Source: Escherichia coli
Lineage (GTDB): Bacteria; Pseudomonadota; Gammaproteobacteria; Enterobacterales; Enterobacteriaceae
Strand: one strand, 5' to 3'
Length of the DNA: 64,000 nt
Assembly: GCF_036507355.1 (NCBI RefSeq)
Contig: NZ_AP027877.1
Shown here: positions 45,207 through 48,173 of the stretch, piece after piece
How positions within the stretch are numbered: the first letter of the stretch is position 1
Layout of the letters: every line of letters begins with the position of its first letter
The notes under the pieces: model-generated
The model's input: only the letters and a program-made list of their open reading frames with translations
Databases searched by the model: none
Told to the model about the DNA's origin: nothing
Program-made: the position numbers and the translations under genes

Positions 45207-46910
45207 TTACTTTTTACTTCCAAATTGAATGCCGAGAAGTTTATTCTCTGCTTTATCGCCACGTAGAGTAAGAACAATTTTTGATTTCAGTTCTAACATT
45301 TCGATTTCAGATAAAGTTGTTTCCATAGCATTAAAGTTTTCAGTGTTTAAAGATGCTATATATTGCTTTCCGCTTCGTTTTAATGACTGATTGACAAATG
45401 AGAACCATCTTGCGCGAACACCTGGATCTATATCAGCAAAAAGACGGTTATCATGCCATAGCATATCCATGGCATGGTTTTCACCACATGTAAATACTAA
45501 CCAGTCAAAGCATAATATCCTAGCATCATTGATCCCATCCGAATCATCACCCTCGATTTGGATGCTTAGATCATAACGAATTTTGTTGTCACCAGTATTA
45601 ACATCCAAAACTATTCCTGCTGGTACCCTTGGGTACATTATTTCTGCGAGCTCAGCAAAAATTTTATCGTATTCTGAAAGAGGATTTGTAGAAGCATAGT
45701 TTACCGCTAATCTGTCTTGTTCAACTTTTCGTTCTCTTAGATTTTGAGCTTTCTGTTGAAGGTTAATAGAAAAATTTAAATAATCATGTAACCTTTCTTT
45801 TTCTTCTTTAAATTCAGCTAGTTGTCTAGCTATGACTGCGTATTCATCAAATGCTTTCTTGCCTTGCAGGGATTCCAAATATGAATCACGTAATGCTGAA
45901 ATATCCTTAATGTCAATTTTAAGAGATTCAATTTCTAACAAAAGTTTTACTTTATCATTTTCAAGTCTTTTCTTTCTGTTAAAAGATAATGATTTGTGAA
46001 AATTTTCAACTGACTCAAAATGGGCCAATGTTTCTGGCTTGAAAATCTCTTGTAAGCCATTGTACAGTTCAAGAAGCTCTTCTCTTGAAATGTCAGGGTG
46101 TTCTAATAAAGTTTTTTCTATATTATTTACTTTAAATTCAGCTATATTTTTGTTTTTTTCAACTTCTCGTAATTTTATAGTTAAACTGTTTGTTTCATTC
46201 TCAATAGCTCTGTATTGCTCGTGAACTTGAAATGCATTCAGTTCATCCTGCAGTCTTGGGATCTCTCTTTCTAGCCACTCATAGCGTACTTTAGGTTGAG
46301 AGCCTGCTCTAAACATGTCTTTTAGAATATCATCGTCTTGCCAATTTTTTAGCGATTGACTTACTTTATCCAGCTCTTGCTTATTATTTCTTTTAGATAA
46401 TATTAAATTATGATCTATACCGAGAAGAAATGCGGTACGAAGCAATGCTTCAAAGTCTTGCTCCTTTTTTGTCCTAGTTGGACTGATGCAGTCATCTCTG
46501 GTATATCGCGAAAAACGCTTAAATAAAGATCTGAATGATAAATACGGAATGTTATTCTCAAGATTAAATATTCCTATTTTATCTAATAAATCTTTAAATG
46601 CTTTTAAAGATATTGTTTTGTCATTTAATAATAATTTTTTTCCATTGCCCGTTCTAGATATTAAGTACTCAACTCCATTATGAGAAAAAAGTAAAGAGAA
46701 CCACCAATCTGGAACTGCTGAAGTTAATTTTTTATCAGCATTAGCTCCTAAACAATGTTGAATGAGACCGAGAATAAGTGTCTTACCGACTCCGTTACTA
46801 CTGCCTTCTTTTTCTTTAGAGCTATCACCAATGATCAACGTTAGTCCTGTATCATTGAAATGCACTGGATGAAAAGTTGGCTGATCGCAAGTTAAGCGAA
46901 TTAACTTCAT
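45207..46910 (-). CDS. SMC/ABC-like P-loop ATPase with long coiled coil (candidate defence ATPase, LmuB/DdmC-like)
   Basis: 567 aa; N-terminal LTLIIGDSSKEKEGSSNGVGKTLILG (Walker A-like); central E/K/L-rich region; ATG directly follows upstream TAA. Confidence 0.5.
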   Translation of the reverse strand: MKLIRLTCDQPTFHPVHFNDTGLTLIIGDSSKEKEGSSNGVGKTLILGLIQHCLGANADKKLTSAVPDWWFSLLFSHNGVEYLISRTGNGKKLLLNDKTISLKAFKDLLDKIGIFNLENNIPYLSFRSLFKRFSRYTRDDCISPTRTKKEQDFEALLRTAFLLGIDHNLILSKRNNKQELDKVSQSLKNWQDDDILKDMFRAGSQPKVRYEWLEREIPRLQDELNAFQVHEQYRAIENETNSLTIKLREVEKNKNIAEFKVNNIEKTLLEHPDISREELLELYNGLQEIFKPETLAHFESVENFHKSLSFNRKKRLENDKVKLLLEIESLKIDIKDISALRDSYLESLQGKKAFDEYAVIARQLAEFKEEKERLHDYLNFSINLQQKAQNLRERKVEQDRLAVNYASTNPLSEYDKIFAELAEIMYPRVPAGIVLDVNTGDNKIRYDLSIQIEGDDSDGINDARILCFDWLVFTCGENHAMDMLWHDNRLFADIDPGVRARWFSFVNQSLKRSGKQYIASLNTENFNAMETTLSEIEMLELKSKIVLTLRGDKAENKLLGIQFGSKK

Positions 46911-47418
46911 TTAACTTTCCTTATTTTTTAATTTGTCATAATTGCAACAGATTGGCATTATTCTGTTTTCATTATCTAGCGTTATTTGTTTGATGCAAAA
47001 AAGAATGTCTACGGCAAGTATAAATTGTGTAAAAGAGGGCGTGATTATCGTTGATTTATTTTTCCGCTCTATTTTTGTCCATAGTTCTTCTATGGATACC
47101 GGTCCATCAATTAACGAACGGATGTATCCTGCAATCGCAATTAGGGAGTTACTAAACCTAACATGCTTATGTGGCAGAAGCATTGCTTGGATGTTCATAA
47201 GCATCACATGTCTCAAAATATTTAGCTAAAATTAACTCTGCAGCAAATCGATAACTCGCGACCGCACTTGTGGGAACTTGCGGGGGAAGGAGTTTATCTA
47301 TCATCCAAGTATATCTTAAATCTGCATAATTGTGGTTATCTTCAGTTATCGCCAATTTACTTTTTGCATAAGTATCTCTAACTTCTTGAGCTATAGTTTG
47401 TTCAAGACCACAAGACCA
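46911..47418 (-). other. Two overlapping short ORFs in different frames: small middle gene or frameshift-disrupted coding sequence
   Basis: Frame A open 47418-47167 (only TTG start, no SD); frame B 47216-46911 ends with TAA abutting ATPase ATG; overlap 47167-47216. Confidence 0.35.
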
Positions 47419-48173
47419 TTATCAACAGAATCTAAAAATTCATTTATCAAATATAGTTGATAGCTAAAAGATTCCAGCCTGCTTTTTATTGGTTTTGTAA
47501 TACCATTTATTTTTATTTTATCTTCGAAGTCCGGGGCTGTTTCACTTAAAAAATTCATGGGTGAAGAAGATTTTTGTGCTAAAAAAGTCAATACTTCACC
47601 AACAGCTCGAGTATCTGTAAAGTCTAAATTAACCTCAGGAATGAAACCTACAATATCTTGCTTTTCACCCTCGGATAATGACATAAACTTTTGAAGGAGC
47701 TCCATCCCACCCATTGCACCTGCGTGATTAAGACTTTTACTGATTGCAAGTGTATTTAATGAAAGTCCAACAGGTGCTGGAATACCCTTGAAATAATCAT
47801 TCATTACAAAAGTATATTTTGATACTTTCCCCCATTTGGCGACTAATTTATCAAAGTCGCCAATCGATTTATTAACAGCTTCTAGCTCTTTGGTTTGATT
47901 TGAAGGTTTAGGTCCATAAACTTGGAAGTAATGAGCCTCATGAGCAATCCACCCATCATTCCCGCCATCTCCCCAGTTTCCCCAAGGGGAAACAGCTTGA
48001 AAGCCAGGAGTCGCGTATTGCATAACCTTCGAAAAAAGCGCCTGAAAACTGTCTCCCATACATTCATGTACTTTTAACCGAAAGAACTGTCTGTAGAGGT
48101 AATCTTGCTGTGTCGAACTCATTTTCCTCTCATCCATGATGAACACTTTTGATGATAATATCCTCTCATTCAT
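47391..48173 (-). CDS. Hypothetical protein, possible PD-(D/E)xK nuclease-like effector; first gene of operon
   Basis: 260-aa ORF; GNWGDGGNDGW...YFQVYGPK resembles Mrr-type DGG(I/N)D motif by eye; divergent from arsR. Confidence 0.35.
   Translation of the reverse strand: MNERILSSKVFIMDERKMSSTQQDYLYRQFFRLKVHECMGDSFQALFSKVMQYATPGFQAVSPWGNWGDGGNDGWIAHEAHYFQVYGPKPSNQTKELEAVNKSIGDFDKLVAKWGKVSKYTFVMNDYFKGIPAPVGLSLNTLAISKSLNHAGAMGGMELLQKFMSLSEGEKQDIVGFIPEVNLDFTDTRAVGEVLTFLAQKSSSPMNFLSETAPDFEDKIKINGITKPIKSRLESFSYQLYLINEFLDSVDNGLVVLNKL

Follow-up and report, generated by a model that had tools for sequence, protein, structure and literature searches.

A likely ABC-three component cassette of the Lamassu superfamily with a frameshifted effector gene in a tRNA-Gly-linked island of Escherichia coli

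Do the minus-strand genes at positions 45207-48173 of a 64,000-nucleotide (nt) stretch of Escherichia coli DNA (contig NZ_AP027877.1, assembly GCF_036507355.1) encode an anti-phage system, and if so, is this copy of it active? The whole stretch is referred to here as the window. A first-pass annotation made from the sequence alone had proposed a candidate defense operon consisting of a nuclease-like protein, a frame-split middle region and an SMC-like coiled-coil ATPase. We are fairly confident that the locus is a horizontally acquired ABC-three component (ABC-3C) abortive-infection cassette of the Lamassu superfamily, of the DUF2326/MC6/CTD10 subtype, and that its effector gene is inactivated in this copy. 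The four minus-strand open reading frames (ORFs) of the first-pass annotation were recovered at the same positions, as was the TAA-ATG junction at 46911/46910, where the stop codon of the middle component abuts the ATG of the ATPase. The GC content of the cassette region is 33-37%, versus ~50% in its flanks. The features of the cassette, in window coordinates and with protein lengths in amino acids (aa), are as follows.

45207-46910, minus strand: ATPase ORF, 567 aa, intact; a DUF2326/YydD-type, SMC-Rad50-like ABC ATPase
46911-47216, minus strand: ORF holding the middle component, 101 aa
46911-47183, minus strand: middle component 6 gene, 90 aa, intact
47167-47355, minus strand: small ORF with a TTG start at 47355, 62 aa, the out-of-frame C-terminal tail of the effector
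47391-48173, minus strand: first ORF of the effector as originally listed, 260 aa
47167-48122, minus strand: effector gene, a frameshifted pseudogene; in-frame part 47391-48122, 243 aa
47167-47402, minus strand: out-of-frame remainder of the effector gene, ~79 codons
47403-47418, minus strand: 8-bp tandem duplication, TGGTCTTG twice, a perfect repeat and the source of the frameshift
47391-47393, minus strand: premature TAG stop that ends the frameshifted effector

The 567-aa protein had been read as an SMC/ABC-type ATPase with a P-loop and a long coiled coil, and this reading held on closer analysis. The P-loop, SSNGVGKT, comprises residues 37-44, and the AlphaFold2 (AF2) model (predicted local distance difference test score, pLDDT, of 84.9) consists of two head halves split by a coiled coil, with a near-continuous helix from residue 168 to residue 425, in an SMC/Rad50/LmuB-like fold. 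Residues 434-563 of the C-terminal head match Pfam DUF2326 (3.4e-29). Among PADLOC models, PDC-M68B aligns with the protein from end to end (7.7e-73), whereas LmuB (PDLC03860) aligns with residues 38-98 only (1.5e-4). When the model was compared with known structures by Foldseek, the top match was the YydD-YydB model 9a6c_A (2.5e-23, template modeling score 0.62, identity 16%), followed by LmuB structures with values from 2.4e-12 to 2.5e-11 (among them 9hqx_B, 2.4e-12; 9uxh_F, 3.1e-12; and 9ux7_A, 1.7e-11) and then by SMC, Rad50 and JetC. Homologues of the ATPase carry the label "YydD (DUF2326 family)" in their sources.

Three motifs are invariant in 36 ATPase homologues: P-loop residues N39, G40, G42, K43 and T44; S457-D-G-I-N, which resembles a signature motif and opens a helix; and W485-H-D487-N488-R, which closes the Walker B strand. 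The residue that follows the Walker B aspartate D487 is N488, placing an amide where ABC ATPases have the catalytic glutamate; this assignment derives from the predicted strand 483-486 and the order of the motifs. A CxxC zinc hook is absent from the protein, whose cysteines lie at positions 8, 53, 141, 467 and 475 only, with none at the apex (residues 270-300). Conserved in the apex is the pattern HPDIS...LY.GL..IFKPE..HF..VE.FH. Contigs from several Enterobacteriaceae, 181 in all, carry the exact ATPase sequence of the window.

The 90-aa product of 46911-47183 matches Pfam MC6 (3.6e-16) and, more weakly, MC7 (9e-6), and its exact sequence is also recorded in the protein collection. The gene overlaps the ancestral effector stop codon by 17 nt, and no obvious Shine-Dalgarno sequence was seen upstream of its start. 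Sequence searches of PDB chains with the three proteins or their family profiles returned nothing relevant, leaving fold comparison as the only informative route to structure, and NCBIfam gave no usable match (the best, TrlF, scored 15 bits against a cutoff of 350).

For the effector, an intact 315-aa orthologue was analyzed. Pfam CTD10 matches it over its full length at residues 173-307 (1.4e-9), and an AF2 model built from 47 sequences (pLDDT 82.8, predicted template modeling score 0.80) divides the protein into an N-terminal domain (residues ~1-165; alpha-alpha-beta-beta-beta-alpha-beta-alpha-beta) and a helical C-terminal domain (residues 171-302). By fold comparison the N-terminal domain adopts the PD-(D/E)xK fold of restriction endonucleases and carries GDGGxDG...Q, an Mrr-like motif; the alpha-beta-beta-beta-alpha-beta core is present and is common to Mrr-type and type IIS nucleases (AF1548, the FokI cleavage domain, EcoT38I). 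The profile and structure searches that had been suggested as a check on the first-pass annotation thus found both an ABC ATPase fold and a nuclease fold. Its proposal of an Mrr-like nuclease was borne out for the fold and for the GDGGND...QVYGPK motif, which is present in the window protein, but not for the family match or the active site. No Pfam family, Mrr_cat included, matched residues 1-170 of the intact effector or the corresponding region in 20 diverse relatives, and PHROGs gave no match for the effector. The Mrr-type catalytic triad D...(D/E/Q)xK is incomplete: D56 and Q67 are invariant, but the beta-3 lysine is replaced by Y69 in the effector (Q67-V-Y69) and by Tyr, His or Phe across the family.

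Polar residues D52, D56, Q67, K85, D89 and N108 are invariant across the wider effector-domain family, a pattern that suggests a rearranged active site. A profile of the N-terminal domain retrieved 1,398 representative clusters, mostly of the ~315-aa architecture. In some clusters the domain is N-terminal in NACHT/STAND NTPases (P0370, P0367) and in others it is N-terminal in ~1270-aa TPR-GreAB-C-PIN proteins (P0382, P0413, P0417, P0422, P0425); both kinds of protein keep equivalents of the same six polar residues. This is the behavior expected of an interchangeable "executioner" module of conflict systems, and the domain may act as one.

The "frame-split middle region" of the first-pass annotation proved to be misplaced. 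The split sits in the effector gene, because an 8-bp duplication frameshifts that gene, and the middle component is intact. In an alignment with the two closest relatives (L001 and L002), which are 99.7% and 98.6% identical, an 8-base insertion was found in the window only. Direct reading shows two perfect copies in tandem, TGGTCTTG/TGGTCTTG; deleting one copy restores a 315-codon ORF. The effector of the window is truncated after residue 236 of 315. Its length of 260 aa, based on a start at 48173, also required correction: translation most probably begins at 48122 (MSSTQQDY), giving a 243-aa product, since a good ribosome-binding site (GAGAGGAAA) precedes it, the N-termini of homologues agree with it and RefSeq uses it. 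The intact 315-aa effector is encoded by 98 contigs, its truncated form by a single one; the 243-aa product, WP_338388096.1, is recorded once, on one 4.64-Mb E. coli contig.

According to the AF2 model and the alignment of homologues, the part of the effector that is lost comprises the last ~79 residues, which form the three final helices of CTD10. No other part of the effector is as well conserved; the lost segment includes the most conserved motif of the family, AKYFETCDAYEHP, and carries the invariant residues F300, E301, C303, D304, Y306 and P309. What stays in frame is the nuclease-fold domain (residues ~1-165) with the beginning of CTD10, and the window protein matches Pfam CTD10 marginally, over model positions 2-63 of 134, i.e., the first half. 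Because the conserved half of CTD10 is lost, the truncated effector should neither dock nor oligomerize, and the cassette copy in the window is most likely inactive. Translational coupling from the effector gene to the overlapping middle component gene may be lost as well, since MC6 has no evident ribosome-binding site of its own and overlaps the ancestral effector stop codon. Programmed frameshifting was considered and ruled out: the shift stems from a strain-specific 8-bp duplication and is therefore not credible as a programmed event, and the nearest relatives and nearly all listed homologues have a single ORF of ~315-320 aa.

It might be argued that the cassette nevertheless functions, either with the 243-aa effector working alongside MC6 and the ATPase or with the 62-aa tail made separately and complementing it. 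The ATPase and MC6 genes are, after all, intact and identical to widespread alleles, and the whole nuclease-fold domain (1-165) lies upstream of the frameshift. We regard this as highly improbable given the conservation of the segment that is lost and the single ORF of ~315 aa in nearly all listed homologues. The Lamassu systems point the same way: the C-terminal domain of LmuA makes all contacts with LmuB and LmuC and drives the oligomerization needed for activity, and spontaneous loss-of-function mutations of DdmA map to its C-terminal domain (PMC11707656).

How widespread is the cassette, and how often is it broken? The same locus was found in 6 of 5,426 complete E. coli genomes, at 95-99.7% identity, and in these relatives RefSeq lists a 315-aa "ABC-three component system protein", a 90-aa "ABC-three component system middle component 6" and a "DUF2326 domain-containing protein". 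In Geobacter metallireducens, Halomonas and Erwinia the genes likewise follow the order CTD10-effector, MC6, DUF2326, and the first two overlap; the Halomonas cassette lies within a conjugative element, between TraC and TraU, and the Erwinia cassette adjoins an integrase. The cassette is a conserved, mobile three-gene unit. A megablast search of PLSDB plasmids gave no match to it. In E. coli, IS903B interrupts the ATPase gene of L008 (NZ_LR890349.1) and ISSen4 the effector gene of L009 (NZ_CM176349.1), so that with the frameshift described here three of the seven E. coli cassettes are broken (insertion sequences accounting for two of the six others). In the 90% cluster of the effector, several variants from Enterobacter are independently frameshifted or N-terminally replaced (P0243, P0247, P0248, P0250, P0252), and truncated ATPase variants also exist. 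Frequent disruption would fit a costly, self-toxic system and would equally fit ordinary decay of accessory genes; we claim no bias toward the effector.

These disruptions bear on whether the 8-bp duplication arose as an error of sequencing or assembly in a strain that carries an intact, ordinary ABC-3C operon. Such an error would be consistent with the truncated product being known from a single contig and with the remaining differences from L001, which are point substitutions and one in-frame 3-bp indel in L001. The usual sequencing errors, however, are changes in homopolymer length rather than perfect duplications of a mixed 8-bp sequence, and independent disruptions of the cassette are common both in E. 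coli and in Enterobacter. We therefore consider an artifact very unlikely.

To which known systems does the cassette belong? The first-pass annotation had noted a likeness to Lamassu/DdmABC or ABC-3C systems, which the matches to MC6, CTD10 and DUF2326 and the LmuB-like fold substantiate. ABC-3C systems (Krishnan et al. 2020; Pfam MC1-8 and CTD1-15), as defined by the Pfam family names and the papers that cite the original description, combine an SMC/Rad50-like ABC ATPase that has a coiled-coil insert between its head halves, a small middle component gene and an effector that couples a variable N-terminal domain with an ABC-3C C-terminal domain. The cassette has the ATPase, an MC6 gene between the effector and ATPase genes, an effector whose intact orthologue joins a variable N-terminal domain to CTD10, and an operon conserved across distant taxa; the frameshifted effector gene means that the three genes are not all intact in the window. 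Membership in ABC-3C thus holds on each defining feature tested, bar one broken gene. ABC-3C systems have been placed within the Lamassu superfamily (PMC10586767; 10.1101/2025.06.23.660979), DdmA carrying CTD7 and DdmB carrying MC3 (PMC11707656).

Fold and layout agree with type II Lamassu (LmuA-LmuC-LmuB), represented by DdmABC of Vibrio cholerae and LmuACB of Salmonella enterica. The Pfam subfamilies differ, being CTD10, MC6 and DUF2326 in the cassette versus CTD7, MC3 and an SMC/AAA_23-type ATPase in DdmABC; the cassette ATPase shares ~15% identity with LmuB and is shorter (567 versus ~630 aa); and its nuclease, unlike that of Lamassu, is not of the Cap4/DUF4297 type and has no beta-3 lysine. 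LmuB has a glutamine after the Walker B aspartate and hydrolyzes ATP very slowly, whereas the cassette ATPase has an invariant asparagine (N488) at this position. Strict Lamassu membership does not hold at the level of profiles, the LmuB profile matching residues 38-98 only. The cassette ATPase has the LmuB-like fold but no zinc hook.

The best structural match of the ATPase comes from YydB-YydC-YydD of Bacillus subtilis, a DUF2326-type ABC-3C system, in the form of the YydD-YydB model (16% identity). YydB is a metallophosphoesterase-type effector rather than one with a nuclease fold. No defense phenotype of yydBCD was reported in the literature found on YydD, YydB or YydC. In PADLOC, PDC-M68 is a predicted candidate only; its M68B model matches the ATPase over its full length, its M68A model matches the effector at residues 182-308 only (E-value 0.0011) and not in the N-terminal domain, and MC6 matches no PADLOC model. 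The suggestion that the locus may be a divergent or undescribed variant accordingly falls away: the DUF2326/MC6/CTD10 subtype is already known computationally, from Pfam, the PADLOC PDC-M68 candidate, with PDC-M68B covering the ATPase, and RefSeq names.

By analogy with LmuACB, a working mechanism can be proposed for intact copies. In the Salmonella system, two LmuB molecules and LmuC sequester the C-terminal oligomerization domain of LmuA (10.1101/2025.03.14.643221), and LmuA freed upon sensing of DNA ends becomes a tetrameric, active nuclease, whereby infection is aborted (10.1101/2025.03.14.643221; 10.1101/2025.06.23.660979). In the cassette, the coiled-coil ABC ATPase would dimerize and, jointly with the middle component, hold the helical CTD10 of the effector, whose N-terminal restriction-endonuclease-fold domain would so be kept monomeric and inactive. 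The ATPase would sense abnormal phage or plasmid DNA (DNA ends or replication intermediates), ATP-dependent engagement of the heads would release the effector, and the freed effector would oligomerize via its C-terminal domain, degrade DNA and kill the infected cell. Both docking and oligomerization would fail for the truncated effector of the window.

Several points weigh against this interpretation. The effector motif is non-canonical in lacking the beta-3 lysine, leaving catalysis by the predicted nuclease unproven; the Lamassu profiles barely match the cassette (LmuB, 1.5e-4 over 60 residues; LmuA, 0.005); the ATPase has no zinc hook and no cysteine between residues 141 and 467, so that dimerization and sensing may differ from those of SalEnt LmuB, whose zinc hook is required for defense; and no experiments on any DUF2326/MC6/CTD10 system turned up in our literature search, the one DUF2326 paper found being unrelated to defense. 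An assembly error behind the frameshift would also count against it and is, as argued above, unlikely.

A different role for the intact cassette can also be envisaged, in which it serves its mobile element through competition with plasmids or other elements or through addiction and stabilization, or has a DNA-repair-like function, rather than defending the host against phage. The cassette does travel in integrative or conjugative elements (in Halomonas it is flanked by TraC and TraU, and in Erwinia and E. coli it lies next to integrases), DdmABC also eliminates plasmids (PMC11707656), and the ATPase fold is common to the Rad50 and SMC repair proteins. The effector domain, on the other hand, is also found in the NACHT/STAND and TPR-GreAB-C-PIN conflict systems; the Lamassu-family systems tested protect against phage by abortive infection; and anti-plasmid and anti-phage roles can coexist. 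We judge such a role unlikely and retain an abortive-infection cassette as the preferred explanation. Within it, the hook-less sensor, the invariant D-N of Walker B and the rearranged nuclease site raise the possibility, which we advance only tentatively, that DUF2326/MC6/CTD10 cassettes form a branch of the Lamassu superfamily with a mechanism of its own.

Does the genomic setting resemble a defense island? The features that surround the cassette are the following.

38339-38412: tRNA-Gly(CCC) (glyU)
38547-40178: integrase gene of the first element, 543 aa
42585-42607, plus strand: attachment site (att), a 23-nt direct repeat of the 3' end of the tRNA-Gly; 2 matches in the window, 0 in 100 shuffles
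42772-43998, plus strand: tyrosine integrase of the second element, 408 aa (phrog_1, 5e-77)
44154-45131, plus strand: HEPN-like gene convergent with the cassette, RefSeq-equivalent start ~44196, ~311-325 aa
45183-45201, minus strand: GC-rich hairpin CGGCAGGCACTGCCTGCCG, 8-bp stem with 7 G-C pairs
48242-48270, minus strand: promoter-like site 5' of the effector gene, TTGATA-17-GATAAT, 10/12 consensus positions
48333-52637: arsRDABC operon, cargo of the second element
52672-53208: GNAT acetyltransferase gene, cargo of the second element
53333-53866: ORF resembling a fused sigma-70/ArsA remnant; the equivalent region consists of pseudogenes in a relative
54043-54714: arsH
54605-55758: IS3-family element

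The att repeat at 42585-42607 delimits the cassette-bearing element on its left side and splits the island into two tandem integrative elements at the tRNA-Gly. A third copy, which would mark the right end, was sought in the window and not found. The second element contains, in order, the 408-aa integrase (annotated as a tyrosine-type recombinase/integrase in L001 and L002), the HEPN-like gene, the cassette and the arsRDABC operon. The first-pass description of a tRNA-linked island beside an integrase, a typical defense-island context, was right with regard to the tRNA-Gly, the integrases and the att site, but not with regard to the cargo, which mainly concerns arsenic resistance: the surroundings are an arsenic-resistance island, not a classic multi-system defense cluster. 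The promoter-like site lies within the intergenic stretch shared with the divergent arsR; it is a consensus match only, and the regional count of such sites does not exceed that in shuffles. The hairpin directly follows the ATPase stop codon, between convergent genes, and is likely a terminator.

Besides its 543-aa integrase, the first element (~4.2 kb; 38413-42607) has genes for a 187-aa regulator of the KilA-N/Bro-like type (phrog_129) and for a 157-aa protein of unknown function. Isolate 23S01245-7 lacks this element, and there the second element directly abuts the tRNA. The product of the HEPN-like gene belongs with phrog_17908, a family of unknown function (8e-157), shows a weak match to Pfam HEPN/RES N-terminal domain 1 (7e-5) and has an Rx4H HEPN motif, RNHLVH, at residue 272; PADLOC gave no match for it. 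Most likely the gene is a HEPN-type RNase toxin or defense gene in its own right. Its candidacy as a fourth component of the cassette was rejected, as it is absent beside the cassette in Geobacter, Halomonas and Erwinia. Farther along the window lies a low-GC block (55813-61656, 30-36% GC) that looks like ETT2, the degenerate type III secretion island found near glyU in E. coli; its products presumably include a 325-aa YgeH-like regulator, a 163-aa TPR chaperone resembling YgeG, and YqeI-like (269 aa) and YqeH-like regulators. In a relative, xdhABC and actS flank the locus, in support of assigning the window to the glyU locus of E. coli.

The copy in the window adds little for annotation, as the cassette is already recognized and is pseudogenized here, and it is a poor candidate for cloning because it is probably non-functional. 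Intact orthologues suited to testing are available in E. coli Combat11I9 and in isolate 23S01245-7, and one intact operon spans 2965298-2968205 of NZ_CP021726.1. Systems of the DUF2326-type ABC-3C kind are widespread in Enterobacteriaceae and beyond and have no published phenotype. The nuclease-fold domain of the effector, which is common to three kinds of conflict system and has no canonical lysine, is a reasonable biochemical target. Should DUF2326/MC6/CTD10 cassettes prove to be a distinct branch, the intact orthologues would define a new nuclease clade together with hook-independent sensing and effector release.

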